This document shows positions 35,723 through 56,400 of a stretch of 64,000 nucleotides of DNA, one piece after another. Where the stretch lies: sequence record OM386661.1; one strand, written 5' to 3'. Source of the DNA: Escherichia phage vB_EcoM_ESCO45. The position numbers and the translations under genes were made by a program. Position 1 is the stretch's first letter. Every line of letters starts with the position of its first letter. The notes below the pieces were generated by a model. That model was not told the origin of the DNA and did not search any database. It worked only from the letters and a program-made list of their open reading frames with translations.

Positions 35723-37867
35723 ATGAACAAAGTACAGATTATTAAAAAGAATGGCTCACTCGAAGAACCTGATATCAAAAAAGTTTTAACAGCAGTCACA
35801 AAGTCAGCTAACAGAGTTGGTTATAAAGAGCTTCCACCAGATGTTACCCAAGCTCTTGAGTCAGCATTTATGAGGGTTCTGGTAAAATCCACTAAGCAGA
35901 ATAATTTACTCATTTCAGTAAATGATATTCACAGTATTGTTGAGGGTGCTTTGGCAGAAGTCAACCACGAGATTTATGAGTCTTACTCAACATATAGAAA
36001 TTACCGTAAAGAAGTTGCTCAAAATTGGGATGAACTTTACCAGAAGACCAAAGATACACTCTTCTTAGGTGACAGAGAGAATGCTAACTTTGACAGCAGT
36101 TTAATTTCTACAAAAGGCTCAATTATTCGTGGTTATCTGACTAAAGAAATCTTTAAACAGTACCATTTAACACCAGAGGAACTTGAAGCCATTGAAAAAG
36201 GGTTTATCTATATCCATGATTTAAGAGACCTAATTTTTGGTGGTATCAACTGTTGTCTGTTTGACATTGGTAAAGTCCTGAAAGGTGGCTTTGAAATGTC
36301 TGGCATTGAATATTGTGAACCGAAGTCTGTACTGTCAGCCTTACAGGTTATTGGTGACGTAGTTCTTTCAGCAACTGCACAGCAATTTGGTGGTTTTACT
36401 TTAGCAGAGATTGATAAGGTACTTGTGCCGTATGCTAAGAAGTCTCTACGCTATCATGCTGAGAAAGCAGCATCTTATGGTATTCCTAAAGAACATTACC
36501 ACAATTATGTCATGGAACAGCTACAGATTGAACTGACTCAAGGTTTCCAGTCACTTGAAATGAAACTAAATACTGTACCTTGTAGTCGTGGGGATTTTGC
36601 ATTCACAACTTTGACATTCGGGTTACTTGACTCAGATATGTCTAATGAAGATAACCGACTGCAATACATGATTGCGAGCACTCTCCTAGATGTTCGTATG
36701 AATGGACAAGGTAAGAGCAAGAAGCCTGTTGTATTTCCTAAACTGGTTTATATTTATGACCAGAAGAGACACGATGAGAATATCTGTCAAGGACACCTGT
36801 ACAGTAAAGCCATTGAGTGTTGCTCTAAAGCAATGTATCCAGATTTCTTAAGTGTATCTGGTCATGGTGCTGTAGCAGAGGCTTTTGAGCGTTCTGGTAA
36901 GGTTATTTCACCGATGGGTTGCAGAGCCTTCTTATCTCCATATTTTAACGAGAATGGGGAAGAGTTCTACGTTGGTCGTGCTAACATTGGTGCTGTCTCT
37001 TTGAACTTACCAATGATTTATCAGTACACCAAAGAGAATGGTTTAGATTTCTGGAAAGAGCTTGATAAGTACCTAGAGATGATTCGCAGCTTCCACAAGA
37101 AACGTTACGAAATGATTGCTAATATGCCAGCAAGTTCTAACCCTCTTGCATTTACACAAGGTGGTCTGTATAAAGGTACTAAGAAGCCTACTGACAAGGT
37201 TGGTTGGGATATCGTGAAATCTTTCACAGCCTCTTTTGGGGTTACTGCGCTTGATGAGCTATCTGTTCTTGCTGAGGGTAAACGACTCCATGAAGTTGGA
37301 AGCTGTAGTTTTGCATATGATGTTCTGGCATACATTAACATGAAAACTGAAGAGTTTAAGAACGAAGATGGCTTCTTGTATGCGGTATATGGCACTCCAG
37401 CAGAATCACTTTGTGGAACTCAGTTAAAACAGTTCAGAGATATGTTTGGCGTTATTAAAGGTGTCTCTGACAAGGAATACTTTACAAACAGTTTCCATAT
37501 GAATGTTGCAGCAGATATTACACCATTTGAGAAGCAGGACTTAGAAGAACCCTTCTTCCATATCTGTAGAGGCGGCAGAATCCAGTATGTAAGGGTAGCT
37601 AATCCAGAAAACTTATCAGCACTTAAAAGTTGTATTACAAGGGGGATGTTGAAAGGTTTCTATCAGGGACTTAACTTTGACTTAGCAATCTGTGAACATT
37701 GTGGTAACAGACCAAAGGCTGATGTTGAAGAATGTGAGGTTTGTCATTCACACGATATCTCTGTGATTAACAGGGTGTGCGGGTACTTGTCATTCACAAA
37801 AATTAAAGGTCAGTCTCGAATGAATGACGCTAAGATGGCAGAAATTAAGGATAGGGTTTCTATGTAA
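35723..37867 (+). CDS. nrdD: anaerobic ribonucleoside-triphosphate reductase (class III)
   Basis: 714 aa; N-terminal ATP-cone, C-terminal Zn site CEHCGN...CEVCHS and glycyl-radical motif RVCGYLS. Confidence 0.9.
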   Translation: MNKVQIIKKNGSLEEPDIKKVLTAVTKSANRVGYKELPPDVTQALESAFMRVLVKSTKQNNLLISVNDIHSIVEGALAEVNHEIYESYSTYRNYRKEVAQNWDELYQKTKDTLFLGDRENANFDSSLISTKGSIIRGYLTKEIFKQYHLTPEELEAIEKGFIYIHDLRDLIFGGINCCLFDIGKVLKGGFEMSGIEYCEPKSVLSALQVIGDVVLSATAQQFGGFTLAEIDKVLVPYAKKSLRYHAEKAASYGIPKEHYHNYVMEQLQIELTQGFQSLEMKLNTVPCSRGDFAFTTLTFGLLDSDMSNEDNRLQYMIASTLLDVRMNGQGKSKKPVVFPKLVYIYDQKRHDENICQGHLYSKAIECCSKAMYPDFLSVSGHGAVAEAFERSGKVISPMGCRAFLSPYFNENGEEFYVGRANIGAVSLNLPMIYQYTKENGLDFWKELDKYLEMIRSFHKKRYEMIANMPASSNPLAFTQGGLYKGTKKPTDKVGWDIVKSFTASFGVTALDELSVLAEGKRLHEVGSCSFAYDVLAYINMKTEEFKNEDGFLYAVYGTPAESLCGTQLKQFRDMFGVIKGVSDKEYFTNSFHMNVAADITPFEKQDLEEPFFHICRGGRIQYVRVANPENLSALKSCITRGMLKGFYQGLNFDLAICEHCGNRPKADVEECEVCHSHDISVINRVCGYLSFTKIKGQSRMNDAKMAEIKDRVSM

Positions 37868-37931
37868 AACTTGACAAGGTGGTGTGGGTTTTGATAGGCT
37901 TACATCACCTTTTTATTGGTGAGGTAACTAG

Positions 37932-38417
37932 ATGAATTACATGGATATTAGACCATTTGATACAGCTAATGGTGAAGGGGTTCGTGTAAGCCTCTTCGTA
38001 GCTGGTTGTAAGCATCACTGCGAAGGCTGCTTTAACAGGGAGTCTTGGAAGTTTAATGCTGGTAAAGAGTTTACTTATGCAAACCTCTACGGAATCATCC
38101 AACTAATGGGTGATAATGCTGTCAGTGGTTTGTCAATACTTGGTGGAGAACCTCTGGATGATAGAAATGTTCAAGAGGTTACCAATATATGTAAACGTAT
38201 TAAAACTATTTATCCAGAGAAGTCTATATGGCTTTGGACAGGTTTTCAACTACACGAAAAAATTCACCTTGATGTGATGAAATACATTGACGTGGTGATT
38301 GATGGCAAGTATGATTTATCTAAACCAACAACTAAACCATATCGTGGTTCTGATAACCAAATTCTCTGGAGAAAAGAGTATGGATGGCAAGGTGATTGTC
38401 AGTGGAGAGCAGAGTAA
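37932..38417 (+). CDS. nrdG: anaerobic RNR activating enzyme (radical SAM)
   Basis: 161 aa; CKHHCEGC (Cx3Cx2C) radical-SAM cluster motif. Confidence 0.8.
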   Translation: MNYMDIRPFDTANGEGVRVSLFVAGCKHHCEGCFNRESWKFNAGKEFTYANLYGIIQLMGDNAVSGLSILGGEPLDDRNVQEVTNICKRIKTIYPEKSIWLWTGFQLHEKIHLDVMKYIDVVIDGKYDLSKPTTKPYRGSDNQILWRKEYGWQGDCQWRAE

Positions 38418-39908: not shown

Positions 39909-42275
39909 ATGCGCATGGTAAACGACCACGCAGAAGTGATTAAGAGTTCAACTTCTTTGGAGACATCTCAAGCACAGATTATAATGACACCTGAAATGTT
40001 CAGTCTCCTGAGTTCTGATGTATATACCTTTAAAGAAAGAGCAGTGATTCGTGAACTATCGTGTAATGCAGTAGATGCTCAGAAAGAAGTTGGAAAAGAG
40101 AACATCCCATTCCATGTGCATTTACCTACTCGATTTGAGCCTTACTTTGAAGTCCGTGACTTTGGAACTGGTTTAACCCATGACAAAGTAATGAATTTGT
40201 ATCTGAACTATGGGGCTTCTACGAAGAATGATTCTAATGACTACATTGGTGCAATGGGTATCGGCTCAAAGTCACCGTTTGCGATTGCTCAGTCATTCAC
40301 AGTGTCTAGCTATGTTGATGGTGTTGTTAATAAATACTCTGTTTACCTTGAGAATGATATCCCTCAAGTAACTAAGCTTACTACTAACCAAACAAATGAA
40401 CCTAATGGATTAGCTGTACGTGTGGCTGTTGCTGACCATCGTATTTCAAAGTTCTTTGAAGAGGCTGGTCACGTATACTCATACTTTGCTGTAAAACCAG
40501 AAAGTAATATTGTATATGATGACGTGTTAGCAGATATGAACGTCATTGCCCGTGAAGAAGGTGTTTATGATGCCATGATTCATAAGCAAAGCTGGCGTTC
40601 CAGTATTAACAGAACAGGGTTTAATGTGGTGATGGGTAATATTGCCTATCCAGTTAATATGGAAGCATTACTTGGCGATGATTTCTTCAAGGTCTTGCCA
40701 GAATTTTTCCGTAGAAGTGTAGACCTTGTAAACATCTACATGCCTATTGGTTCAGTTGCTATTGCAGCTTCTCGTGAAGCATTGCAGATGAATGATACGA
40801 CAAAAAATGTTATCATTGAGGCTACTAAAAAGATAACTGAAGCAATTACAAGGGACGTTATTAAGGGGGTTAATAGCCAACCTACACTTATGGATGCTGC
40901 ACAGGCTTATGCAGAGCTACGCTTGAACTCACGAGAAATGTTTAATGCTGTGTGTCCAAAGCTAGAGTGGGGAGGTGTTAAGCTTGACTCTCTGGAAAAA
41001 GAATTGTTAAACATTCGTCGTGGAATTATCTACGCAGAAGATGGCTCAGTCATCTATGAACGTGACGGCAAAGGTAATATTAAGGTTGATAAGAACGGAA
41101 ACAACATCCCTAAAGTAGATTATCTTTATAGCCCAGTTGCTTATGTTAAGTTTAACTCTTTAGAGAGTAAGATTCGTGCAACAGCACTTTCCTACACTCA
41201 AGAGGCAAGTATGTTCAATATCTTTGGTGCAATGCGTAAAAGCCAAGTTGAACAGTTTTTGTTTGTTATTAATGACCGTCGCAATAAAAACGGTACTGAG
41301 AAGACTGTAGGACGCAATCAAATCTTGCGTGGTGCATGTCGAGACTACGCCAACGAGTCAAATCTGTTTCACAGATACAATGGTATTGTGTTTGTATTCT
41401 CGACTGAAAAAGAGTTAGATGATTTAATCAATCTACACAAACTTGATAAAAGCTTGTTAAAGATTGTGAAAATGTCTGATAAGGAACACCATTACCAGCG
41501 TAAAGAAGCTGTAAGAGGTGTTGTAAAACTCTGGAAAGCAGTTCCGGCAGAAGGTGTAGCCTCCTACAAAGAGGTGTCAGAAGACTTAGACACAATTGAG
41601 GAGCCTCAGCTTTACATTAAGGCAGTTGGTGACACAGTTGATGGTGAATGTTTTTGCTCATCTCCAGAAGATGTAGCTAAGTCAGTTGCTAATGTTACAG
41701 GGAAGACAGTCTATGTTTTCCGAAAAGCAAATTGGAAAAAGATACCAGAAGGCTGGATTGAAGTAGATGAGAAGCTCTTGAACGACAGCTTAACTGATGT
41801 TCATTGGATTAATCATAACAGGTATATGACACGCATCTACATGAATGGTGTTCTTGACCTTACAAGCAGTTGGATTATTGCCAGAAACTTTACATTCAAT
41901 AACAGGAAGATTTCTCGTGGTTATTGCTATTCACGAGATACTAACAAAACTATCTTCCTAGAAGGTAATGAGGATGCTGTAGAGGCAATTTTCGGTAAAA
42001 TCCAGTATGTTGCTGCACCATTTGCATACACTTACACTATTAGTGTCTTGCAAACTCTGAAAGGGTGTCTTGACAATAACACAAAGCTTTACAAGAAAAT
42101 CAGGAAAGCTGGTGACCGTATGGTTATTAAGGTGACAAACTACCTTTCAAAAAGAAAACAAGAAAATTTCTTGCTTTCCCATTTAGATTGGAATAAAGTG
42201 TCACCTATTGAAGTGAGTAAGCTCTTAGGCTTTGATGTGAAGTGTGTTCCAGAAGGTACAACACTTTACGATTAA
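39909..42275 (+). CDS. rIIA: rIIA-like protein (GHKL-type ATPase N-terminal domain)
   Basis: 788 aa; Bergerat-fold motifs IRELSCNAVDAQ (N box), DFGTGLT (G1), GAMGIGSKSPF (G2); size and pairing with downstream rIIB-like gene. Confidence 0.55.
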   Translation: MRMVNDHAEVIKSSTSLETSQAQIIMTPEMFSLLSSDVYTFKERAVIRELSCNAVDAQKEVGKENIPFHVHLPTRFEPYFEVRDFGTGLTHDKVMNLYLNYGASTKNDSNDYIGAMGIGSKSPFAIAQSFTVSSYVDGVVNKYSVYLENDIPQVTKLTTNQTNEPNGLAVRVAVADHRISKFFEEAGHVYSYFAVKPESNIVYDDVLADMNVIAREEGVYDAMIHKQSWRSSINRTGFNVVMGNIAYPVNMEALLGDDFFKVLPEFFRRSVDLVNIYMPIGSVAIAASREALQMNDTTKNVIIEATKKITEAITRDVIKGVNSQPTLMDAAQAYAELRLNSREMFNAVCPKLEWGGVKLDSLEKELLNIRRGIIYAEDGSVIYERDGKGNIKVDKNGNNIPKVDYLYSPVAYVKFNSLESKIRATALSYTQEASMFNIFGAMRKSQVEQFLFVINDRRNKNGTEKTVGRNQILRGACRDYANESNLFHRYNGIVFVFSTEKELDDLINLHKLDKSLLKIVKMSDKEHHYQRKEAVRGVVKLWKAVPAEGVASYKEVSEDLDTIEEPQLYIKAVGDTVDGECFCSSPEDVAKSVANVTGKTVYVFRKANWKKIPEGWIEVDEKLLNDSLTDVHWINHNRYMTRIYMNGVLDLTSSWIIARNFTFNNRKISRGYCYSRDTNKTIFLEGNEDAVEAIFGKIQYVAAPFAYTYTISVLQTLKGCLDNNTKLYKKIRKAGDRMVIKVTNYLSKRKQENFLLSHLDWNKVSPIEVSKLLGFDVKCVPEGTTLYD

Positions 42276-42280
42276 AGTGC

Positions 42281-42310
42281 TTGACAAGGGGCTTTGAAGC
42301 CCCTTAGAAT
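42281..42310 (+). promoter_or_regulatory. sigma70-like promoter with hairpin embedded in spacer (upstream of rIIB-like gene)
   Basis: TTGACA-N18-TAGAAT; spacer contains inverted repeat AAGGGGCTT/AAGCCCCTT. Confidence 0.45.
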
Positions 42311-42355
42311 AGCCTCACAAAATGAGTTATTAACTAAAAAAGAGAGAGTAATAAG

Positions 42356-43465
42356 ATGACTACTAAAACTAAAGCACAGATTGACGCAGAAATTTACAAA
42401 CTGGTTAAAGAGGGCAAGCTGACTAAAACAGCTATTGCACAGAAATTTAACACCTCAACCCGTTCAGTCGGTCGTGCTGTAGAGCGTCATGAAGCAACCT
42501 TAAAAGGGAATAAAAAGGCAACTTCTACACCAGCTACGAAGACTTTAAAGCAAGTTGCTAAGACCTTTAAAAAGAAAGCTGATAAGCCAGTTAAAAAGGC
42601 TGTTAAAGAGGATGTACAGAAAGCTCCGGTAAATAAACTGCATGAAGCTATGCAGAATGGCAACCAGATTGAGTACATGATTACCGGCGACTCTGTTATC
42701 ATGATTTTCGGTGCAGACTCTGAAATCGTTGAATCTACCCATCCGAACTACAAAGAAATCGTGATGGCTGTTATATCCGGTGAATATAAGAAAGCTTTCG
42801 AACTGATGAACATTCGTAAGTCTATCGAAAACTTCACTCAGGGTGCTATCACCATCAAAGGTGACAAGTTATTCTATGGTGCTGTTGAGATGCGTTCTAC
42901 TCTGGTTGACCGTATTCTTCACATGATGAAGACTGGAGATAAAGGTTTTGAACGACTTGTAATGTTCTTTGAAAAACTGATGGAAAACCCATCTAAAGAC
43001 TCTGTAGAACAACTTTGGGGCTTCGTATCCCACCTTGATGTTGAAATTGATGAAGAAGGTTACATCATTGGTTGGAAGAAAGTATCTACTCGTGAAGGTA
43101 AGCTGGTTGACTCCCGCACCTGCAAAGTACCTAATGATTTGGGTAACATTGTAGAAATGCCACGTTGGATGGTTGATAATGACCGTAACGTGACTTGCTC
43201 TCAAGGTCTTCACGTTGGTGCTTGGGATTATGTTCGTTACTTCTCAGGCGATACAATTCTGAAGGTTCGTGTCCATCCACGAGATGTTGTGTCCGTACCA
43301 ACTGATTACAACGATATGAAGATGCGTTCATCACGTTATGAAGTTGCAGCAATCGTTGATAATCAACGTAAAGTGCTGAAAGAATGGGATGGTAAGACTG
43401 AAGCTTTGCATGTCATCGTTGGCACTGCTGGTGAACTTATCTCTCAGCGTAAACGTGAAATCTAA
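42356..43465 (+). CDS. rIIB: rIIB-like protein
   Basis: 369 aa immediately after rIIA-like gene; C-terminal half resembles rIIB as recalled (GDKLFYGAVEMRS..., CSQGLHVG..., VHPRDVVSVPTDYNDMKMR); not database-verified. Confidence 0.45.
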   Translation: MTTKTKAQIDAEIYKLVKEGKLTKTAIAQKFNTSTRSVGRAVERHEATLKGNKKATSTPATKTLKQVAKTFKKKADKPVKKAVKEDVQKAPVNKLHEAMQNGNQIEYMITGDSVIMIFGADSEIVESTHPNYKEIVMAVISGEYKKAFELMNIRKSIENFTQGAITIKGDKLFYGAVEMRSTLVDRILHMMKTGDKGFERLVMFFEKLMENPSKDSVEQLWGFVSHLDVEIDEEGYIIGWKKVSTREGKLVDSRTCKVPNDLGNIVEMPRWMVDNDRNVTCSQGLHVGAWDYVRYFSGDTILKVRVHPRDVVSVPTDYNDMKMRSSRYEVAAIVDNQRKVLKEWDGKTEALHVIVGTAGELISQRKREI

Positions 43466-43565: not shown

Positions 43566-44114
43566 ATGAAGAAATTGATTCTAGGTTTGTGCTTAATGTT
43601 TATAGCACACTTATCTTATGCAGTTGACTGCCCAGAGCTATCAATTAGTCAAAAAGTAAACATGTTAAAAGCTTACCAGTATGGTGAGAATAACATGGGT
43701 AAAGGTTGGGGTATCACTCTAGCTGCTATAGCCTTACAAGAGTCAGAGTTAGGTCTGAAGGTAGAGAATAAAAAGACACACGATTATGGTATTTTCCAGA
43801 ATCACTTGAAGACTGTTGTAAAGCGTAACAAAATTAGTCCTAATGTGGCTAAAAAGAAACTTTTAAAAGACTTTAACTATGCTGCGAAGGAAACTCACAA
43901 AGAGCTTGAGTTTTGGACAAAGGTACATGGTCAGCCAAAGTCAAAGAAGACTTTACAAAAAGTTTTAGCATCTTATAATGCTGGTTATTCGTACAGAATC
44001 CCTAAAGCTAAGAAGTATTCTCAAGATGTCTATAACAATATGAGAGTTATTGCTCAATGTGAATTTGCAACAAACATTTCTAAGGTAAATCATGAAAAAA
44101 TTAAGAAAGTCTGA
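43566..44114 (+). CDS. secreted lytic transglycosylase (SLT domain) with signal peptide
   Basis: 182 aa; signal peptide MKKLILGLCLMFIAHLSYA; SLT motifs ALQESELG (catalytic Glu), YGIFQ, SYNAGYSY. Confidence 0.55.
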   Translation: MKKLILGLCLMFIAHLSYAVDCPELSISQKVNMLKAYQYGENNMGKGWGITLAAIALQESELGLKVENKKTHDYGIFQNHLKTVVKRNKISPNVAKKKLLKDFNYAAKETHKELEFWTKVHGQPKSKKTLQKVLASYNAGYSYRIPKAKKYSQDVYNNMRVIAQCEFATNISKVNHEKIKKV

Positions 44115-48588: not shown

Positions 48589-49374
48589 ATGGGTATTGTA
48601 AAAATCATCAATGGTGATATCTTTGACGCCTTTGATAAAGGTAAGTTTGACATCATTGGTCACGGTTGCAACTGTATGAATTTAATGGGTGCAGGTATCG
48701 CTGACAAGATTTCTAAACTTTACCCAAAAGCATATGAGACCGATACAGAAGTTTACATCTATGCAGGTGGTACAGGTCACAAACCCTGTGAAAATTTACT
48801 GGGTAATTTCTCTGTAGCACGTTTAAAACAAGGTCGTATAGCTAACCTTTACACTCAGCTTAAGACTGGTAAAGACGCCCGATACAGTGCTTTAGAGTCA
48901 TCTTTGAAGCAACTTAACAGATACTGTGAAGTTAACCAGTTGAAGAAAGTTGGTTTACCTATGATTGGTGCAGGTATCGGTGGACTTGACCCTCAAGCTG
49001 TCACAGTTATCATCAATCAGGTTATGAAGAGCGTAGATGTTTATCTGTATGTCTACGAGACAGAGATGTGCAACAAGTTACACTCAGGTTGGAAAAACTA
49101 CTGTGAACCAGAATACTTTGCAGGTGTAGTTGTGTCCACAGATAATGCAGTTACCCTCTTCAGACGAAGAAAAGGTAAGATACATCAAAGTAACCCTCCG
49201 GTTGAAAAGATGTCTCTAAGTAACGCTCTAGTTACCCACCTGTCGAAGAGCAATCACAGAATTGCTGTGACATTTGGTAGTGATGCCGATGCTTACATTT
49301 ATGCAAGAACTGATGAGGATATCAAGACGGTTTTCTCTTCACCAGAAGTTACCTTCTTAGACGCAAAGAGCTAA
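48589..49374 (+). CDS. macro-domain-like (ADP-ribose binding/processing) protein
   Basis: 261 aa; N-terminal INGDIFDA...DIIGHGCNCMNLMGAGIADKI resembles macro-domain Gly-rich ADP-ribose binding loop; C-terminal ~100 aa extension of unknown function. Confidence 0.45.
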   Translation: MGIVKIINGDIFDAFDKGKFDIIGHGCNCMNLMGAGIADKISKLYPKAYETDTEVYIYAGGTGHKPCENLLGNFSVARLKQGRIANLYTQLKTGKDARYSALESSLKQLNRYCEVNQLKKVGLPMIGAGIGGLDPQAVTVIINQVMKSVDVYLYVYETEMCNKLHSGWKNYCEPEYFAGVVVSTDNAVTLFRRRKGKIHQSNPPVEKMSLSNALVTHLSKSNHRIAVTFGSDADAYIYARTDEDIKTVFSSPEVTFLDAKS

Positions 49375-49443
49375 GAAACTCTGTAGAATATTCACAATAG
49401 ACTAAGCCTTTCTTATCTGGTAAATTTTTCAGGTAAGGGGGCT

Positions 49444-49625
49444 TTTTCATTTCAGAATTGTGCAGGCATATTTCTATAGAGAAACCTGTAGAGAAAATCT
49501 TGAACTCCAAAGAGAAAATTCATTTTCAAACTGTGCAGGTAATCTCCAAAGAGCTTTTTCATTTTCAAAACGTGCAGAGAAAAATCAGGTCGGGCAAGAA
49601 AAATCATTTTAGAATTGTGCAGGTA
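49444..49625. repeat. iteron-like direct repeat array (4 copies of ~20-bp unit TTCATTTTCARAAYTGTGCAGG)
   Basis: Copies at ~49446, 49519, 49558, 49604; copies 2 and 3 are parts of a 39-bp tandem duplication beginning CTCCAAAGAG (49505-49543 / 49544-49582). Confidence 0.6.
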
Positions 49626-49801
49626 GGCGGGTCTAGGCGGGGATGTCGCCATTTCTCACAATGCTACCACATCCAAAAAGAAAAGTCAACAGAAAAATTT
49701 GTAGCGGATTGAAAAATAATTCTTGACTATAGTTCTGTTTTGTGGTATTCGCGTGCGCCCGTTTCATTACATTTTTGCCAAAAATATTTTTAAAATTTTT
49801 A

Positions 49802-49830
49802 TTGACTATTTGAACGGGGTTATCTAGTAT
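49802..49830 (+). promoter_or_regulatory. sigma70-like promoter upstream of small-gene cluster
   Basis: TTGACT-N17-TAGTAT; second candidate TTGACT at 49723. Confidence 0.5.
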
Positions 49831-49883
49831 TTGCATCAGACAGGGCGACAAGCCCAATAGCCTTAAACTAGGAGAATCTAAAA

Positions 49884-50090
49884 ATGCTATACGGTCGTGA
49901 ATTGATGGTCACAACTAACGTCAACACAAATGCAAAACGTTTTTACATGCAAATTTGCGGCGCATGGTCTAGAATATCAGAATCTGACTATTGCAATTAT
50001 GTAGAAACGGCTATAGACTCTAATTGCTACCTTACAAGAAACACAAGAAAGCACATAAGACAGACAGCAGTTTACTACTACGAAATCTAA
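49884..50090 (+). CDS. hypothetical small protein
   Basis: 68 aa; preceded by promoter 49802-49830 and conserved RBS context CTAGGAGA. Confidence 0.4.
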   Translation: MLYGRELMVTTNVNTNAKRFYMQICGAWSRISESDYCNYVETAIDSNCYLTRNTRKHIRQTAVYYYEI

Positions 50091-50092
50091 TA

Positions 50093-50178
50093 AAGTGCTT
50101 TACAAGGTGCTTATAGTTCGATAAAGTAAGCACCAGATAAAGAGCTTTATCACTAAACCTAAACTGGAGAACTTAAAA
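50093..50178 (+). promoter_or_regulatory. repeated promoter/stem-loop/RBS cassette, family A copy 1
   Basis: AAAGTGCTTTACAAGGTGCTTATAGTTCGATAAAGTAAGCACCAGATAAAGAGCTTTATCAC...GGAGA...ATG; contains TTTACA-N17-TAAAGT, hairpin GGTGCTTA/TAAGCACC and palindrome GATAAAGAGCTTTATC. Confidence 0.55.
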
Positions 50179-50559
50179 ATGGCATATCGTGCACCTAAAT
50201 TCATCAATAAAGAAAATTTCCGTAATGCACTGGAGAAGTCACTTGGTGAGAATTTTACAGGTCAGATTATTGTTGTTCACGCATACAATTTCAAGTATGA
50301 TATCAACGGGAACAGAATCAATCATTACACGGCAACAATGTTAGATGGCGCGCTTTCAAGTGAAAAAGCCGTACTAAATGCACTTGCAGGACGTGGTAAA
50401 AATCTGATAAGATGCGACAAAAGACGCTATCAGGGCGGCGCATATGGTTATGATGATGCTGTTTATCATCTTGAAAATATGGGCTATCAAGTAGAAAAAG
50501 CTGGAGTCTCTCAAATCATCGGGAGCGATGGCTATGTAACTATCTTCAAAAATAACTGA
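50179..50559 (+). CDS. hypothetical small protein
   Basis: 126 aa; preceded by family-A cassette. Confidence 0.45.
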   Translation: MAYRAPKFINKENFRNALEKSLGENFTGQIIVVHAYNFKYDINGNRINHYTATMLDGALSSEKAVLNALAGRGKNLIRCDKRRYQGGAYGYDDAVYHLENMGYQVEKAGVSQIIGSDGYVTIFKNN

Positions 50560-50561
50560 TA

Positions 50562-50647
50562 AAGTGCTTTACAAGGTGCTTATAGTTCGATATAGTAAGC
50601 ACCAGATAAAGAGCTTTATCACTAAACCCTAGACTGGAGATTCAAAA
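50562..50647 (+). promoter_or_regulatory. family A cassette copy 2
   Basis: Near-identical to copy 1 (one substitution ATAAAG to ATATAG). Confidence 0.55.
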
Positions 50648-51160
50648 ATGAAAACTATAGACGCAACCTTTGAAGTTGTAAAAGAAAAATTTTCAATCAT
50701 TTATGAAGCTGTTACTTGGTATGAACCAAGTCATGCCCTTGAAAATTGGGAGTTTACAGATGACCATCAAGGCGGTGTGACTATTAAAAATCCTAACTAT
50801 CGAGGCAATGAATTTAAATATGCAATCCCTTTACATTACAGCTTGAAACAGCTTTCAAGTGACTATGCAAAACAAGGCCGGGAAAATCCATCCCGTGAGG
50901 CTTACATGAGCTTACAGGAAGAGCTAAAAAGGGATTTAGAGGCTTCAGATTATTACCTATCTGCAAAAGTTGTAGACGCAAACGGGAAAACGGTTTTAGA
51001 TAGTTTTTCTATTGGTTACGCTTTCGATTGGAGCTATAGCGACGGCGTTGATTTAGAAGATAGACTAAAAGAGGAGGTGAGCAATTCAGGCGCAGAATCT
51101 GAAGTTATGGAACAACTAGAAGCCTTAAAAGATTCAGTGATGAATATCTTTAAAAATTAA
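50648..51160 (+). CDS. hypothetical small protein
   Basis: 170 aa; preceded by family-A cassette. Confidence 0.45.
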   Translation: MKTIDATFEVVKEKFSIIYEAVTWYEPSHALENWEFTDDHQGGVTIKNPNYRGNEFKYAIPLHYSLKQLSSDYAKQGRENPSREAYMSLQEELKRDLEASDYYLSAKVVDANGKTVLDSFSIGYAFDWSYSDGVDLEDRLKEEVSNSGAESEVMEQLEALKDSVMNIFKN

Positions 51161-51176
51161 ATTAAGAGGAAACACC

Positions 51177-51509
51177 ATGTTAATGATGGGAATCACTGCA
51201 ATCATCGCCATTATAGCACTTTATAAGGCTTACAGCGCCTATAATTTAGCAGATAAGGCAATTACACAACAGGTTAATAATAGCCTTGTAGAAAGCTTTC
51301 TGGAGCGTTTAAGCGATGAGCAAATAAAGAGGCTAGAGATGAGTTTCAGATTTAAAGCGAAAACTTATCAGATTAGTGACATTTTCAAAGATGACTATCA
51401 ACTGATTGATGATTATAACTCTCTACTAAATGCTTTGAATATCAGTGACTTAAAAGACTACTACGCTGTAATTGCTCAAGAAATGAGCAAACGAAAAAAT
51501 TTCTCTTGA
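51177..51509 (+). CDS. hypothetical membrane-anchored protein
   Basis: 110 aa; N-terminal TM MLMMGITAIIAIIALY. Confidence 0.4.
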   Translation: MLMMGITAIIAIIALYKAYSAYNLADKAITQQVNNSLVESFLERLSDEQIKRLEMSFRFKAKTYQISDIFKDDYQLIDDYNSLLNALNISDLKDYYAVIAQEMSKRKNFS

Positions 51510-51598
51510 ATTTGGTTTTTAAAACAAGTAAATTACTAATCAACGGGGAGGGCATGACCTCCCCACTAAATAAAACCCTTAAACTAGGAGATTCAAAA
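51510..51598 (+). promoter_or_regulatory. repeated promoter/stem-loop/RBS cassette, family B copy 1
   Basis: TTGAAT-N17-TAAATT then CAACGGGGAGGGCATGACCTCCCCACTAAATAAAACCCTTAAACTAGGAGATTCAAAAATG; hairpin GGGGAGG/CCTCCCC. Confidence 0.55.
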
Positions 51599-51871
51599 AT
51601 GTATACTACTAACAACGGGCGAACCCTAAATGTAACCCTACGCCACTATGTGAACGGCATAATGCACTTTGAGGATTTACAAGCGGAACAACATATTCTG
51701 GATTGGCAAGTAGCAGGACTGCAAAAAACTACTACCGGATATGGGAAAAAGATACCAACGAGCTGGAAAGTACACTATAAAGGACGTTTGCGCAGAATTT
51801 ATCAGGATGTATATAGCAATAGCGCATCAAGTTACATCATGGTGAAAGGTAAAAAGCTGCATTTAGTGTAA
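51599..51871 (+). CDS. hypothetical small protein
   Basis: Start moved to ATG 51599 after family-B cassette RBS; track ORF 51506 begins with TTG inside the repeat. Confidence 0.4.
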   Translation: MYTTNNGRTLNVTLRHYVNGIMHFEDLQAEQHILDWQVAGLQKTTTGYGKKIPTSWKVHYKGRLRRIYQDVYSNSASSYIMVKGKKLHLV

Positions 51872-51957
51872 AGTGCTTTACAAGGTGCTTACAGTTCGAT
51901 AAAGTAAGCACCAGATAAAGAGCTTTATCAAATAACCCTAAACTGGAGAACTTAAAA
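51871..51957 (+). promoter_or_regulatory. family A cassette copy 3
   Basis: Same module, CTTACAGTTCG variant. Confidence 0.55.
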
Positions 51958-52362
51958 ATGGCTATTAATAACCGTGAGTTATTAATCTTAAAAGCACGTT
52001 TGACCATTAATCGAATTAATGTGATGACATCAGCAGCACCAGATGAAACCTTATATAATATTATTGGGAAGATTCAAAGTGCTATCTTAGACGTTGAAAG
52101 CGTAAAAACCTCACTGATTGACGTTGCAGCGGGTATCACGCTAGACGGCGCACAATATGAAATGGCTGACATGTTGGGCAAATCTAAGGTAATGAATAAA
52201 GAACTTGATTTAAAAATATTCAGATTCGCCGTGAAAGTATGGTTATCCATCGAGTATGATGCCAATTATGCAATCGCTGATTTTTTCGCCACTTGGTTAC
52301 AACGTAATTTAACAAGTCATGTTTTTCGTGATGTATGTGATGCAATTTATGCAGAACTATAA
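51958..52362 (+). CDS. hypothetical small protein
   Basis: 134 aa; preceded by family-A cassette. Confidence 0.45.
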   Translation: MAINNRELLILKARLTINRINVMTSAAPDETLYNIIGKIQSAILDVESVKTSLIDVAAGITLDGAQYEMADMLGKSKVMNKELDLKIFRFAVKVWLSIEYDANYAIADFFATWLQRNLTSHVFRDVCDAIYAEL

Positions 52363-52368
52363 AAAAAT

Positions 52369-52464
52369 TTGTTGACACCGGTTTTTAAAACAAGTAAATT
52401 ACTAATCAACGGGGAGGGCATGACCTCCCCACTAAATAAAACCCTTAAACTAGGAGATTCAAAA
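52369..52464 (+). promoter_or_regulatory. family B cassette copy 2
   Basis: TTGACA-N17-TAAATT + GGGGAGGGCATGACCTCCCC hairpin + RBS. Confidence 0.55.
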
Positions 52465-52662
52465 ATGGCTATTATTAACGGTTTAAACATTGAGACTACT
52501 CACATCAAAGACATTAAAGCCGGTGATATAGTCCTTTCCCACGGCGTAGAAAAAACCGTCACCGAAAAAGATATCAAGGAGGATTCATTCATGGGTCGGA
52601 CCCTCTTTGGTGATTCCTATTGCTTAGGCTATCTTGCTGTTTTAAAAGTTGTAAAAAAATAA
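52465..52662 (+). CDS. hypothetical small protein
   Basis: 65 aa from ATG 52465 after family-B cassette; track start 52369 is TTG inside the repeat. Confidence 0.35.
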   Translation: MAIINGLNIETTHIKDIKAGDIVLSHGVEKTVTEKDIKEDSFMGRTLFGDSYCLGYLAVLKVVKK

Positions 52663-52667
52663 CTGAT

Positions 52668-52756
52668 AAAGTGCTTTACAAGGTGCTTATAGTTCGATAA
52701 AGTAAGCACCAGATAAAGAGCTTTATCACTCAATCCTTAAACTAGGAGATTCAAAA
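52668..52756 (+). promoter_or_regulatory. family A cassette copy 4
   Basis: Same module as copy 1. Confidence 0.55.
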
Positions 52757-53299
52757 ATGAAATGCTTTCACGGTACTACTCAAGAAAATTTTATCAACCT
52801 GATTAATAACGGCGATAAGCCATCAGGTGCATGGAATTGCTCGGACATGGACGGCAATTTTTACGTGTATCCAGAAAATAAAATCTATGGCGACGATGAG
52901 CAAGAAATAATATCTGAAGGTATCCATCAGGCGTTAGGCAATGCCGCTATAACCGCAGCTTTCCAGATGAAAACCCAAAATCTTGTTATCTTGGAACTCG
53001 ATATTCCAGAAGATGACCTAAATGATGATTATTCTTGCGATAATATGTCTGGCGCAGCAAGTTTTACAGAGTATTTTGATATAAGCTGGATTAAAAAAGT
53101 TTACATCACTGAATTTAATGCTATGTTTTCACCTTTTTGTCTTCCTTCACTGGATAACCCGAATTTAAACTATATTGAGGAGCCTCTTGAACTTCTCGCT
53201 AAAAGTATTCAGCAGGCGGACAGTATTCAGGTTTTTTGTGACATCATGGACACACTGACAGAAAACATTGTAGAAAGAGATTTAAAGAGCTTTTTCTAG
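52757..53299 (+). CDS. hypothetical acidic protein
   Basis: 180 aa; preceded by family-A cassette. Confidence 0.45.
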   Translation: MKCFHGTTQENFINLINNGDKPSGAWNCSDMDGNFYVYPENKIYGDDEQEIISEGIHQALGNAAITAAFQMKTQNLVILELDIPEDDLNDDYSCDNMSGAASFTEYFDISWIKKVYITEFNAMFSPFCLPSLDNPNLNYIEEPLELLAKSIQQADSIQVFCDIMDTLTENIVERDLKSFF

Positions 53300-53467
53300 A
53301 AACCTATACAATCACCTTATAAACACTATTTAGCACCTTGTAGGTGCTTCTAGAGTGCTTTAATTATGCTTACAACCGTTTACCTCATCCTTTCCACCTG
53401 TAATGGGGGGGGTATTTATGTGACTTTAAGATAAAATCATCATTAAAAAAGACTAGACAAGCCAGAT

Positions 53468-53548
53468 AAAAATCTGTAAATTATCAATCAACGGGGAGGG
53501 TATAACCTCCCCACTAAATAAAACCCTTAAACTAGGAGATTCAAAAAA
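53468..53548 (+). promoter_or_regulatory. family B cassette copy 3
   Basis: TAGACA-N17-TAAATT + GGGGAGGGTATAACCTCCCC hairpin + RBS. Confidence 0.5.
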
Positions 53549-53890
53549 ATGGCTTATGTAACCGTAGTTACCGATAAAGAGGATTCATCTTGGTCAACTC
53601 AAGTAAGTGACAAGATGACACCTATGCAGTGCCTAAAATACTTTGAGCAATGGAATAAAGGCGAGGATGTAAGTCCCTTCCAAGTAATGCAAATTATACA
53701 TGTGGACAATGAAGGCAATAAAACGGTTTTAAATAGTGAGTACTATGCAAACCGATTTGAAACGAGATGTAAAACGATGAAGCTTCTACGTGAATCCGGC
53801 TATTCTCATATCGCCGCGTTAATTTGGGATGACTTGCTAAAAAGTCAACGTATCAGCTACGTAAAACCTGAAAAAATATTTATAAGCTAA
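53549..53890 (+). CDS. hypothetical small protein
   Basis: 113 aa; preceded by family-B cassette. Confidence 0.45.
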   Translation: MAYVTVVTDKEDSSWSTQVSDKMTPMQCLKYFEQWNKGEDVSPFQVMQIIHVDNEGNKTVLNSEYYANRFETRCKTMKLLRESGYSHIAALIWDDLLKSQRISYVKPEKIFIS

Positions 53891-53923
53891 TCAATAACTT
53901 ACAAAAAACTTTCAAAAAAGTAT

Positions 53924-53952
53924 TGACAACGCCCCTTGACATTGATAATGTT
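53924..53952 (+). promoter_or_regulatory. sigma70-like promoter
   Basis: TTGACA-N17-TAATGT; second TTGACA 7 nt downstream. Confidence 0.4.
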
Positions 53953-54019
53953 GTTCGAGGGGGTTTATCTAAAAGGGATTAACTTAAAAGATTTCTTTAT
54001 AGATAAACTTAAAAAATTA

Positions 54020-54111
54020 CTTGCAATCAGATATCAAACCAAGTAAATTACTAACCAACGGGAGGGATGACCTCCCCACTACATAAAACCCTTAAACTAG
54101 GAGATTCAAAA
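54020..54111 (+). promoter_or_regulatory. family B cassette copy 4
   Basis: TTGCAA-N17-TAAATT + GGGAGGGATGACCTCCCC hairpin + RBS. Confidence 0.5.
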
Positions 54112-54642
54112 ATGAATAAATTCAAAGCTATCAATTATATTCGTTCAAATGCTGTAATGTCTAAACCTGTCAAAGATACATATGAATTTCGCTGCAATGG
54201 TGTACATTTTGCAACTATCACTAAATCAGGAAAAGGTGCTTATTATGTCCATCGTCGTAATGTTGCAACCGTTGTAGTCTCTCATTTCATGCAAGCTGTC
54301 GCAAAATTATTACCGTTATTCTTAGGGATTTACTTAGATGAGTGCAAAAACGTTCGCAACCACGTTAAAAACCTTCTAAACGGTTATAAAATGGCTTACG
54401 AACGTTCAATCAAGTCATTGAACAAATTTTATAAAGCACCTGTAAATACTGTTTCAATGGCTTACAATGTAAATGGTGAGCTGGTTAGTCTCTTTGAAGT
54501 GGAAGAAATTGAACTATATAACTCACGCCCTAAAGGTTACTCTAAAACATTGGGAGAGGGTTTATCTTTCAATATCAAGAATTTAGAAAAAACTTTAAAA
54601 GATATTGAAAAGGATATCGATGAGATAATCAAAAATCTGTAA
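54112..54642 (+). CDS. hypothetical protein
   Basis: 176 aa from ATG 54112 after family-B cassette (track start 54067 lies in the stem-loop). Confidence 0.45.
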   Translation: MNKFKAINYIRSNAVMSKPVKDTYEFRCNGVHFATITKSGKGAYYVHRRNVATVVVSHFMQAVAKLLPLFLGIYLDECKNVRNHVKNLLNGYKMAYERSIKSLNKFYKAPVNTVSMAYNVNGELVSLFEVEEIELYNSRPKGYSKTLGEGLSFNIKNLEKTLKDIEKDIDEIIKNL

Positions 54643-54695
54643 ATTGTCAATCAACGGGGAGGGTATGACCTCCCCACTAAATAAAACCCTATTGA
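54633..54695 (+). promoter_or_regulatory. orphan family B stem-loop copy (no downstream gene)
   Basis: TAAATTGTCAATCAACGGGGAGGGTATGACCTCCCCACTAAATAAAACCCT without following RBS/ATG. Confidence 0.5.
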
Positions 54696-56400
54696 TTCGA
54701 TAGAGTCTATCCCATAGGTGCTTTTTTACGTCTATCAAATCCTTATGCAATCCCTTTCCCTCACCTTTCTAGAATCTCCCCACTGATTCAATAGAGTTTA
54801 TCTCATACCTTAAAAAGCAATAACTCTATAGCTTACCCTATAGCCTTTTATCAAATCAACTTAAATATAAGCCCATAACCCGAGAGGGAAGGGCAACCCT
54901 TTAAACGCCCTATAACGCCCTATAACAGCATTATCAATATAACTTAAGGGATTGCATTACCTCACCTTAAAAAGCACTTTATAAGGCTTTACAGAGCCTT
55001 AAAAGAATCTTTTAAGGGTATAAGCTTATAGGCTGACTAGTATCATGTGAACTGCTAAAAAGTGCTTGATAGTGTCTTAAAAGTATGTTATAGGTGCTAT
55101 AAAGTTACTCAAAAGCTACTCAAAAGTTACTCAAAAGTTACGTAAATGCTAGCCCCCTTAACATTTTCTTAACAATTTCTTAACAAATCCTACATAGTTA
55201 TACTTTCAAGACACTTGTTAACAACTTGTTAGACCCTTGTTAAATCTCTGTTAAGACCACGTAAAAGCTATGTAAAAGCCTTTGGCATAGCCTTAAAAGC
55301 ACTGTAAAGCACTATAAAGAGCTATTCATACATTTGAGGGGCAAATACTAGGGAGAGACTAAAAAGAGCCTATACAGAGCTATAGAGAGCTTTTAAAAGG
55401 TATGTTTAAGGTATCACTAAGAAAGGAAAGGGAACGATAAGAAAAGAGTAGTGACCATGTTAATAGCTTGTTAAAAAGGTTAAATACTTGTTAGGAACTT
55501 GTTAATTATCTAATTGGTATTGTTACCAATCCCTAACAAAATAACCCTTTAAAATTAACTTGTTAGCTCTTGTTAATCATCTGTTAAACCTCTGTAAAGC
55601 CTATGTATCACTTGTTAGAGACTTGTTACCCTCTTGTTAAAACTATTAAGAATCTGTTAAGACCTTTGGAGAGATGTTAAGAGCTTGAGAGAGTTGTTAA
55701 GAGTTTGTTAATGATATTTTAAAATTTTGCAAAGGGGATGTTACAGAGCTGTTAAGGGCTACCAAACAGATATACATCCTAATCAGATATTTTTCAGTTC
55801 CTTCAAAGACCCTAAAAAATGACTTGACAGTCCTATTTTATAAAAAAATTAAAATTCTGAATAATTACCTATACAGTCTTTCTAAAATACAGGCATAAAC
55901 AGGCTTATAAGATACCTTGTTAGTACCGTGTTAGGCCTTGTGAGATAAGGTCTGTAAAGATATTCCTGTTAAGTTTGTTAAAACAGTCTATATAGAGGCT
56001 TAGTAGTGCCTAGTGAACACCTATAGAGAGTGTCATAGCTAACATAGAGATTAAGAGGTGTATAGGAGCTTCTAAGAGGGTATAGAGGGATGGTTAAGGT
56101 GATTGTATAGGTTATTAAGAAGGCTTGTTAGAAGAGTGTTTAGAGGGCTTGTTAGAGGGCTTGTTAGAAGGGTTATACAGAGGGGCTACTAAGACCACTA
56201 GATAGTTACTAAGATACTATATAATACTATATAACTATATAGAGAGTAAGATTAAGAAGGTTGTTAAGAAGGATAGATATTTTATTCACATATGATGGTG
56301 ACCCAGAGGTTGGGACAACCGATAAAATTTTATAAAAATTATAAATTTCGTAAATTTTACTCAATAAAAAGCCCCCAATTAAGGAGGCTCTTAAGATATT
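54643..56400. repeat. 1.75-kb ORF-free repeat-dense region (TTGTTA-core degenerate repeats and short tandem repeats)
   Basis: No ORF of 60 aa or more in any frame; many CTTGTTA(A/G), TGTTAAG copies (55200-55700); tandem CTCAAAAGYTAC x3 (~55096-55135), GGGCTTGTTAGA x3 (~56108-56160), CGCCCTATAA x2 (54907-54925), ACTATATA x3 (~56205-56235). Confidence 0.7.

Follow-up and report, generated by a model that had tools for sequence, protein, structure and literature searches.

The 64,000-nt window analysed here, the whole stretch of DNA from Escherichia phage vB_EcoM_ESCO45 (OM386661.1), belongs to a Felixounavirus (Felix O1-like) and carries, within 49.8–54.7 kb, a single block of small plus-strand genes interspersed with repeated cassettes of ~100 bp. 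Each cassette starts at or over the stop codon of the upstream gene and stops at the ATG of the downstream gene. These cassettes are most probably composite promoter, hairpin and ribosome-site units of the promoter-early-stem-loop (PeSL) type, which are situated in a variable early-gene block and double as recombination handles. The block begins after a macro-domain/phosphatase gene (48589–49374) and a terminator (49408–49441); its right end is a 1.7-kb non-coding stretch, followed by a convergent minus-strand block. The region matches 258 phage records, the top one being Escherichia phage ESCO50, with 90% identity across 6 kb. Ten proteins of the block all fall into PHROG families of unknown function, and a Pfam search with the ten proteins encoded behind the cassettes returns no significant domains.

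The cassettes form two sequence families, A and B, represented in the window by four A copies, four B copies, one truncated B copy (the orphan) and one divergent B-like cassette. The repetition is far beyond chance: a 55-nt core pattern of family A and a 29-nt core pattern of family B have four matches each in the window against 0.00 expected, and the common ribosome-site module has six against 0.04 expected. By repeat search, the A copies lie at 50079, 50548, 51857 and 52655 (83 nt, 82–96% identity) and the B copies at 51495, 52361, 53443 and 54011, plus the truncated copy at 54631–54690; the B element at 54011–54114 has a 1–2 nt deletion in its hairpin. A profile search of both strands across the 64 kb finds no further full copy of either family, and adds the divergent B-like match at 49793–49883 (E = 2e-5) and a single-copy A-like match at 42267–42328 (E = 7e-6). 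The two near-identical families and the 4 + 4 copies plus orphan reported by the initial annotation are all present, but it missed the tenth cassette (49790–49886), just to the left of its reported start. In the orthologous first cassette of wV8, XTG1 and Mushroom, the full GGGGAGGG hairpin is present. The elements, with their −35 and −10 hexamers and Shine-Dalgarno (SD) sequences, are given below.

49790–49886, plus strand: B0, divergent B-like cassette (promoter scan and profile match); −35 TTGACT 49802–49807, −10 TAGTAT 49825–49830, weak hairpin GGGC/GCCC 49843–49855, SD GGAG 49871–49874, ATG 49884.
50088–50181, plus strand: A1; stop TAA 50088–50090, −35 TTTACA 50099–50104, −10 TAAAGT 50122–50127, inner hairpin 50106–50114/50126–50134, extended hairpin 50088–50152 (−22.2 kcal/mol, z −3.35), predicted transcription start ~50135, SD 50166–50169, ATG 50179.
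50557–50650, plus strand: A2; stop TGA 50557–50559, −35 50568–50573, −10 TATAGT 50591–50596, extended hairpin 50557–50621 (−27.9 kcal/mol, z −5.3), ATG 50648.
51495–51601, plus strand: B1; −35 TTGAAT 51506–51511 overlapping the upstream stop TGA, −10 TAAATT 51529–51534, hairpin GGGGAGG/CCTCCCC 51545–51564, ATG 51599.
51866–51960, plus strand: A3; stop TAA 51869–51871 within the 5' arm, −35 51877–51882, −10 51900–51905, extended hairpin 51866–51930 (−24.5 kcal/mol), ATG 51958.
52361–52467, plus strand: B2; −35 TTGACA 52372–52377, −10 TAAATT 52395–52400, hairpin 52411–52430, ATG 52465.
52664–52759, plus strand: A4, a chimera of A promoter/hairpin and B-type ribosome-site module TAAACTAGGAG; −35 52675–52680, −10 52698–52703, extended hairpin 52664–52728 (−29.2 kcal/mol, z −5.3), B profile match 52732–52759, ATG 52757.
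53443–53551, plus strand: B3; −35 TAGACA 53454–53459, −10 TAAATT 53477–53482, hairpin 53493–53512 (z −4.4), ATG 53549.
54011–54114, plus strand: B4; −35 TTGCAA 54021–54026, −10 TAAATT 54044–54049, shortened hairpin GGGAGG/CCTCCC 54060–54076, ATG 54112.
54620–54690, plus strand: orphan B; stop of the last gene within the −10-like TAAATT 54640–54645, hairpin 54656–54675 intact.
54687–54727, plus strand: terminator remnant closing the block; 5' arm supplanted by the end of the orphan cassette, 3' arm AGGTGC, T-run 54722–54727 (by-eye alignment with skuden, Bas63, Felix O1, ESCO50 and Mushroom; not flagged by the terminator scan).
42262–42358, plus strand: single-copy relative of family A in the rIIA/rIIB gap; TAA-AGTGC-TTGACA(42281–42286)-AGGGGCTTTGAAGCCCCT-TAGAAT(42305–42310), the hairpin filling the spacer.

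The family-A promoter reads TTTACA-17-TAAAGT, with TATAGT in A2, and that of family B combines an A-rich tract upstream, a −35 of TTGACA, TTGAAT, TAGACA or TTGCAA, a 17-nt spacer and TAAATT; a hexamer pair with a 17-nt spacer is present in 9/9 gene-linked cassettes of the window. For comparison, copies were collected from the window and from 13 further loci, 74 of family A and 57 of family B, spanning four genera; throughout this set the −35, the 17-nt spacer and the TAnnnT of the −10 are constant, in contrast to the bases beside them. Among 65 distinct A copies, CTTTACA and the −10 positions 1, 2 and 6 (T, A and T) are invariant, the other loop bases being free, with −10 hexamers such as TAAAGT, TATAGT, TATCTT, TAAGAT, TAGTAT, TACCAT and TAATCT and a spacer of 17 nt (18 nt in a few copies). 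Similarly, the spacer is 17 nt long in 51/51 B copies where the −35/−10 search found a real promoter, its sequence differing among paralogues; the −35 of these copies is mostly TTGACA, TTGCAA, TTGACG or TAGACA and the −10 is TAAATT, TAAAGT or TAATAT. In a sigma70 −10 element, the A at position 2 and the T at position 6 are the specifically recognised bases. Because conservation restricted to positions 1, 2 and 6 is the pattern expected of such an element, the cross-genus comparison supports the cassette hexamers as real sigma70 promoters, in line with the initial annotation, which had assigned a sigma70-like pair to each module.

The last cassette of the block provides a natural experiment that, in its pattern of substitutions, agrees with promoter function. 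Where a gene follows, its −35 TTGACG is kept (9/9 genomes); where the downstream genes have disappeared, as in the window, ESCO50 and Mushroom, the hexamer has become TCGATG or TCGACG. The decay in the window and ESCO50 consists of two synonymous changes in overlapping codons (ATT to ATC and GAC to GAT), of which Mushroom carries the first only. The orphan of the window thus has TCGATG instead of TTGACG, yet its hairpin is intact. Furthermore, reverse transcription polymerase chain reaction (RT-PCR) data from Felix O1 place the expression peak of the open reading frames (ORFs) 16, 20, 21 and 22 of the block 5 min after infection.

In family A, the inner hairpin GGTGCTTA/TAAGCACC (e.g., 50106–50134) spans the spacer, the −10 and the discriminator and ends at approximately +1. 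A hairpin in the predicted 5' untranslated region (UTR), as proposed earlier for both families, is therefore found in family B but not in family A, where it encloses the −10 between the −35 and ~+1. The whole A element folds into an extended hairpin of ~65 nt, consisting of 9 + 5 + 9 pairs with 1×1 and 3×3 internal loops, with energies of −22 to −29 kcal/mol (z −3.3 to −5.3) for the window copies. The sequence GATAAAGAGCTTTATC, originally described as a perfect palindrome, is an imperfect one, with 7-nt arms flanking a non-palindromic AG, and represents the 3' arm of a larger inverted repeat, the 5' arm of which, GATAAAGTGCTTTAC, overlaps the upstream stop codon and the −35.

The hairpins of both families are supported by covariation or stem replacement. 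For the extended structure of family A, 88.1% of the cells in alignment A1 are paired, versus 35–52% with the partners slid by 1–3 columns, and the covariation score is 0.127 versus 0.062 in shuffles, a value of 0.127 being reached by 0/500 shuffles. Compensatory pairs occur in both helices, namely 23–48 (GC 53, UA 12, none unpaired), 10–61 (GC 55, UA 7, 3 unpaired), 6–65 (UA 50, AU 4) and 25–46 (CG 32, UG 32, UA 1), these counts being inflated as cassette variants are copied whole. The 20 well-supported pairs contain 118 G·U versus 12 A·C cells, and this asymmetry indicates that the A helix is selected on the plus strand, in sense RNA, and neither as symmetric double-stranded DNA nor on the minus strand. 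The outermost three pairs are mostly unpaired outside the lineage of the window. Since the A hairpin lies upstream of its own predicted start, it would exist only in transcripts arriving from upstream; the predicted A transcript itself, which has the A of CCAGATAAAG as its first base, is almost free of structure, the local-dyad RNA hairpin in its leader amounting to −1.7 kcal/mol in the window and 0 in most relatives.

In family B, the −10 is followed by nnnnnTCAAC and then by a G/C hairpin (GGGGAGG/CCTCCCC, −16 kcal/mol) exactly 10 nt from the −10, and further downstream by an AU-rich leader and the ribosome-site module. The distance of 10 nt is maintained in 54/57 copies, and the mean folding energy of the 57 copies is −13.2 kcal/mol, versus −3.9 for shuffled sequence. 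The stem exists in 18 versions, including GGGGAGGG/CCTTCCCC (the commonest), GGGGGGG/CTCCCCC, GGGGC/GCCCC and GGGC/GCCC. With the start predicted 7–8 nt after the −10, the 5' end of the messenger RNA (mRNA) would lie ~3 nt before the stem, so that only family B has a hairpin at the 5' end of its own predicted transcript. Stem-loops at the 5' terminus are known to stabilise E. coli mRNAs, for example in the ompA 5' UTR. The B hairpin resembles these in its closeness to the predicted 5' end and its fixed distance from the −10; unlike that of ompA, the 5' end of the B transcripts is a prediction.

The ribosome site is shared between the two families. Among the A copies, 56 carry AAAYTGGAG and eight, A4 of the window among them, carry TAAACTAGGAG; the corresponding numbers for the B copies are 27 and 29. 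This near-uniform SD and spacer module gives the same translation start context to all these genes. The context CTRGGAGA-N7-ATG noted previously is conserved, but the spacing to the ATG ranges from N7 to N9 instead of a fixed N7. Likewise, the earlier observation of three N-terminal ORF extensions through cassettes is borne out, as the false starts at 51506, 52369 and 54067 lie upstream of the ATGs supported by ribosome-binding sites at 51599, 52465 and 54112; the ATG at 54067 is located in the hairpin loop of B4, thereby generating the extension. Public annotation is affected too, since the start of ORF19 in Felix O1 (locus L006, 4984–5301) runs through a B cassette. The apparent paralogy of two B-preceded genes was rejected as an artefact, in which the translated cassette clusters unrelated proteins; the true proteins are unrelated. 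Cleavage by a RegB enzyme, considered as an explanation of the uniform GGAG ribosome sites, was dropped, as the label behind it is unsupported. Homologues of the 182-aa product of 43566–44114 go under either 'T4 RegB-like endoribonuclease' or 'lysozyme-like', depending on the GenBank record; Pfam yields a sub-threshold SLT match only, and the PDB sequence search gives no match to RegB or to any other solved structure.

Copies from one genome resemble each other more closely than they do their positional counterparts in another genome. The four A copies share 94.9% identity in the window and 96.0% in ESCO50, and the positional orthologues between these two phages are 90.5% identical, no better than non-orthologues at 89.9%. 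In addition, the window and ESCO50 differ at three sites where each phage has one base common to its four A copies; two of these sites form the compensatory pair 23–48. By these alignments, the A copies show concerted evolution, and the homogenisation deduced earlier from their near-identity is upheld. Meanwhile, the promoter/hairpin and ribosome-site modules reassort, both types of ribosome site being found with both families. Phages differ in which genes they carry together with a cassette, one and the same gene may follow an A cassette in one genome and a B cassette in another, and in the Erwinia phages the order of the shared genes is different.

In seven pairwise comparisons with Felixounavirus genomes, 14 of the 19 distinct breakpoint clusters fall inside the cassettes, which cover 18% of the region (binomial P ~2e-7, a descriptive value only); exchanges between related phages thus occur at cassette boundaries, the point that the initial annotation had proposed to check. 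At a typical breakpoint, two overlapping alignment segments each extend across the cassette, as is characteristic of a unit with a direct repeat on either side. Two family-A elements in tandem, 56 nt apart, precede one gene in Mordin (L010, 3323–3480), a local cassette duplication.

The orphan B cassette is, from its alignment with relatives, a deletion scar. In wV8, XTG1 and skuden, the last cassette precedes two further genes that are missing from the window. The homology of the orphan ends at CCCT (54687–54690), which is joined to the remnant of the block terminator, the ribosome site and gene being lost. ESCO50 and Mushroom lost the same genes via another junction, at CAACGGGG, and altogether the last cassette displays three different deletion junctions. 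In the relatives, the block ends in a fixed module composed of a promoter-less A-like hairpin GGGGCTAAATAGCCCC, AGATACC, TTTACA and a terminator GCCCCT...AGGGGCTTTTTT (L008 9820–9900; L009 9300–9390; Felix O1, L006 7310–7380; L007 8290–8350). In the window, the orphan has taken the place of the 5' half of this module, and the terminator stem that remains is weaker (AGGTGC).

PeSLs comprise an upstream stop codon, an AT-rich stretch, a sigma70 promoter, a stem-loop, an SD and an ATG, and the stem-loop, often polyG/polyC, mostly occupies the spacer or overlaps the −10, and in other cases follows the −10 (PMC2839356). They are known from the T4-type phages RB49/phi1, T4/PST and KVP40/nt-1, where they cluster in ORFan-rich hyperplastic regions and mediate the insertions and deletions that distinguish closely related phages (Arbiol et al. 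2010, PMC2839356; Comeau et al. 2014, PMC4122927). The Felix O1-like cassettes share this architecture: they are intergenic composite units of ~100 bp that open with the stop codon of one gene, continue with an AT-rich stretch and close with the SD and ATG of the next; they possess a sigma70-like early promoter with A-rich tracts upstream; they place a stem-loop at the promoter, enclosing the −10 in family A and following it by 10 nt in family B; they are present in many copies, grouped within a variable block whose small genes have no known function; and indels between close relatives end in them. Every sequence-level feature of PeSLs is found in these cassettes, and the resemblance to T4-type PeSLs recognised at the outset holds in architecture as well as in their position at gene-exchange boundaries. 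There are also differences. The lineage is unrelated (Ounavirinae, 86-kb genome) and has no sequence homology to the T4-type PeSLs, which makes the relation one of analogy and not of family descent. The present cassettes fall into only two sequence families, which are conserved in all four genera; in family A, covariation supports an additional outer helix between positions +4 to +15 and the sequence that precedes and covers the −35; and both hairpins lack a U-tract. For PeSLs, promoter and terminator activity as well as mini-circles have been shown experimentally, whereas for the present cassettes such activities are predictions.

According to the proposed mechanism, host sigma70 RNA polymerase would start at the embedded promoter, as comparative conservation suggests, and thereby give each small accessory gene its own early transcription unit, while the hairpin would act on transcripts as sense-strand RNA, a structure indicated by covariation. 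The family-A hairpin, formed only on RNA from upstream genes, would most likely attenuate or end read-through, or serve as a 3'-terminal protective or processing structure, thus insulating the units. The family-B hairpin would be a stabilising 5'-terminal stem-loop of its own mRNA and, in addition, an intercistronic or 3' hairpin for the upstream RNA. Attenuation, RNase III-type processing (A) and protection of the 5' end (B) may be mutually compatible roles. The near-uniform SD/spacer module provides a common context for translation to begin in all these genes. As long near-identical direct repeats, the units are substrates for homologous recombination, which would account for gain and loss of genes with their cassettes, reassortment of modules and concerted evolution.

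Several points weigh against this PeSL-type reading. The RT-PCR peaks of the cassette-preceded ORFs 17, 19 and 23 of Felix O1 fall at 25 min. The literature searched contains no transcription start, termination or processing data for Felix O1-like phages, so that promoter activity and hairpin function are inferred here. The independent compensatory events are few, ~2–3 per pair, and the ends of BLAST segments are drawn to repeats for technical reasons. Moreover, no U-tract follows the A or B hairpin, the stems being followed by AGATAAAG (A) and ACTAAATAAAA (B), and the terminator scan flags no cassette hairpin. Without a U-tract, canonical intrinsic (rho-independent) termination is unsupported and was rejected for the cassette hairpins; for the same reason, the term 'terminator' would be an extrapolation from the reporter assays of RB49/phi1 PeSLs.

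A tentative alternative regards the hairpins as RNA-processing or stabilising signals and not as attenuators, the predicted A helix (20–23 bp with 3×3 and 1×1 loops) serving as an RNase III-type site. In bacteriophage T7, hairpins processed by RNase III lie between the early genes; like them, the A elements form imperfect helices of ~20 bp, interrupted by internal loops, between the cistrons of an early polycistronic region, and could leave a protective 3' hairpin. Unlike family A, the T7 sites have no embedded promoter, and the family-A site is known from a predicted helix. The length and internal-loop pattern of the extended helix are typical of RNase III substrates, which span about two helical turns and tolerate internal loops, and the lack of a U-tract after either hairpin fits this alternative. 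The promoter-less hairpin GGGGCTAAATAGCCCC, kept at the block end in every relative, and the intact hairpin of the orphan further suggest a function at the 3' termini of RNAs that arrive from upstream. Cutting at the internal loop would protect the upstream mRNA with a 3' hairpin and give the downstream mRNA a 5' end nearly equal to that of the embedded promoter; it is compatible with promoter function. On the other hand, the unpaired outermost three A pairs in most genomes leave only ~20 bp, and the family-B stem (6–8 bp) is too short for RNase III.

A more specific version of such processing, which must be considered doubtful, would make family A a self-contained 'cut-and-restart' insulator, in which the upstream RNA is cut (e.g., by RNase III) at the 3×3 loop. 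The −35 partner and the first 15 transcribed bases lie buried within the 65-nt helix, whose 3×3 internal loop falls on the predicted start site. If so, read-through and de novo transcripts would share a mature 5' end, upstream mRNAs would gain a protective 3' hairpin, and the gene units would be fully portable.

The dyad GATAAAG-AG-CTTTATC and its upstream twin GATAAAG-TG-CTTTAC could also be DNA operators, through which a shared phage or host repressor shuts the A promoters together, but this proposal, put forward by the initial annotation for the palindrome, now appears improbable. Two TAAAGnGCTTTA sites, 47 bp apart, do flank each A promoter, over the −35 and at +1, the 3' site is almost invariant across genera, and the motif has 28 occurrences in the window versus 2.3 expected; most of these 28, however, are the same eight sites counted on both strands. 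Against the proposal stand seven copies in which the left half of the upstream site changes from G to T and the right half of the downstream site from C to A. This change at pair 10–61 breaks both local dyads (TAAAT-TG-CTTTA and TAAAG-AG-ATTTA) and keeps the long-range pair. Local dyad symmetry of the operator type is not conserved as such across the homologues, the dyad being only 5 + 5 nt in most genomes with an RNA hairpin of ~0 kcal/mol. Furthermore, G·U is tolerated and A·C is not, a distinction that a double-stranded DNA site would not make and that points to sense RNA.

It is very improbable that the hairpins are rho-independent terminators of minus-strand (antisense) transcription from the convergent block: TransTerm-type minus-strand annotations do cover A and B hairpins in the wV8 and XTG1 GenBank records and the A-rich tracts upstream of the cassettes are T-runs on the minus strand, but each plus-strand G·U becomes an A·C mismatch there (affecting nearly every A outer stem, half of those of the inner A helix and, in family B, the most frequent stem, GGGGAGGG/CCTTCCCC), and the elements are in fixed register with plus-strand promoters, stops and ATGs. 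There is equally little to recommend the inverted repeats as acting in DNA form, either as supercoiling-sensitive cruciforms or as recognition sites of a recombinase or nuclease that moves gene cassettes; the −35 and −10 do lie within the inverted repeat, where extrusion would occlude the promoter, and breakpoints do cluster in the cassettes, but the wobble-pair strand asymmetry conflicts with a symmetric constraint on double-stranded DNA or cruciforms, no recombinase is evident among the genes of the block by Pfam or PHROG, and the junction positions within the cassette differ, as for homologous or microhomology events and not site-specific ones.

The PeSL-type cassettes have been recorded before as repeats. 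In the wV8 GenBank record (EU877232), the same elements are annotated only as the repeat regions DR_1 to DR_9. The Felix O1 paper lists 57-bp and 39-bp repeats among 'twelve direct repeats', with no function given, puts forward other sequences as promoter candidates and describes the way in which transcription is organised as not known (Whichard et al. 2010, PMC3185647). Its 57-bp repeat CTTTACATGGGGCTTAAAAGTCTGTAAAGTAAGCCCCAGATAAAGAGCTTTACCACT corresponds to family A and its 39-bp repeat TTGACACTGGTTTTTAGATAGATTAAATTACACATCAAC to the family-B promoter. BLAST returns 1441 family-A matches, distributed over 288 phage records, and 1424 family-B matches over 247 records; this amounts to approximately five copies of each element per genome, and all the genomes are of the Ounavirinae type. 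The records span Felixounavirus, Mooglevirus and Suspvirus, and family A additionally the Erwinia Kolesnikvirus group. No A or B element is found in the chromosomes or prophages of 5,426 complete E. coli genomes, and a search of IMG/VR returns only Ounavirinae-like contigs of 84–89 kb. Rfam 15 gives two chance-level matches only (E 0.1 and 0.63), far under the gathering scores, and hence no known RNA family. The literature searched contains no paper linking PeSLs to Felix O1-like phages. The best reading is that these cassettes are of a known, PeSL-like kind, present in phages where they were previously bare 'direct repeats'.

Single-copy promoters in the family-A style are situated at 42262–42358, 37866–37934 and 19359–19325 (minus strand), where TTGACA is directly followed by AGG(G/T)G... 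hairpins that fill the spacer or span the spacer and the −10. In the 37866 element, TTTTATT follows the hairpin, giving a true composite terminator/promoter. The shared design of such single-copy promoters (42281 and 37871) looks like a general building style of the phage. Just upstream of B4, at 53925–54008, a further promoter-in-hairpin contains TTGACA-17-TAATGT within CCCCTTGA.../...TTCGAGGGG, followed by a long AU-rich hairpin; the 136-nt stretch that includes it folds at z = −4.8.

Both flanks of the block are rich in repeats. Between the macro-domain gene terminator and the first cassette (49440–49700), there are four to five scattered copies of a 25–34-nt repeat (TTTTCATTTTCAAAACGTGCAG-like), with minus-strand promoter-like sites at 49689 and 49635; small minus-strand genes are annotated here in some relatives. 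The 1.7-kb non-coding stretch between the convergent blocks (54700–56400) contains at least 15 short arrays with a period of 10–12 nt, including AAAGTTACTCA ×3.7 at 55101–55141, TGTTAA-type units at 55157–55711 and AGAAGGCTTGTT ×4.5 at 56118–56171. It looks like a protein-binding array, perhaps of an origin, packaging or terminal region, and several public records begin their numbering at its counterpart. Elsewhere in the genome, near-identical terminator hairpins GGCTCC-TTCG/TTCT-GGAGCC are scattered at 46996/47079, 61131 (minus strand) and 39317, recalling the 'precisely conserved terminator' that Erwinia phage phiEa21-4 reportedly possesses.

The PeSL-type reading proposes a function for repeats that have stood in Felix O1-group annotations since 2009–2010 as bare 'direct repeats', and it amends public records in which a gene start has been extended across a cassette. 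It would mark a set of independently expressed early small genes, which are likely candidates for host takeover or anti-defence. With two families, natural compensatory variants and a promoter that decays after gene loss, the cassettes form a convenient test system for how such units work, and they offer compact, naturally insulated promoter and ribosome-site parts for phage engineering. Above all, the PeSL idea of a regulatory cassette that is also a recombination handle for accessory early genes would extend from the T4-type phages to an unrelated myovirus subfamily, one that is used in Salmonella and E. coli typing, in biocontrol and in the BASEL collection.

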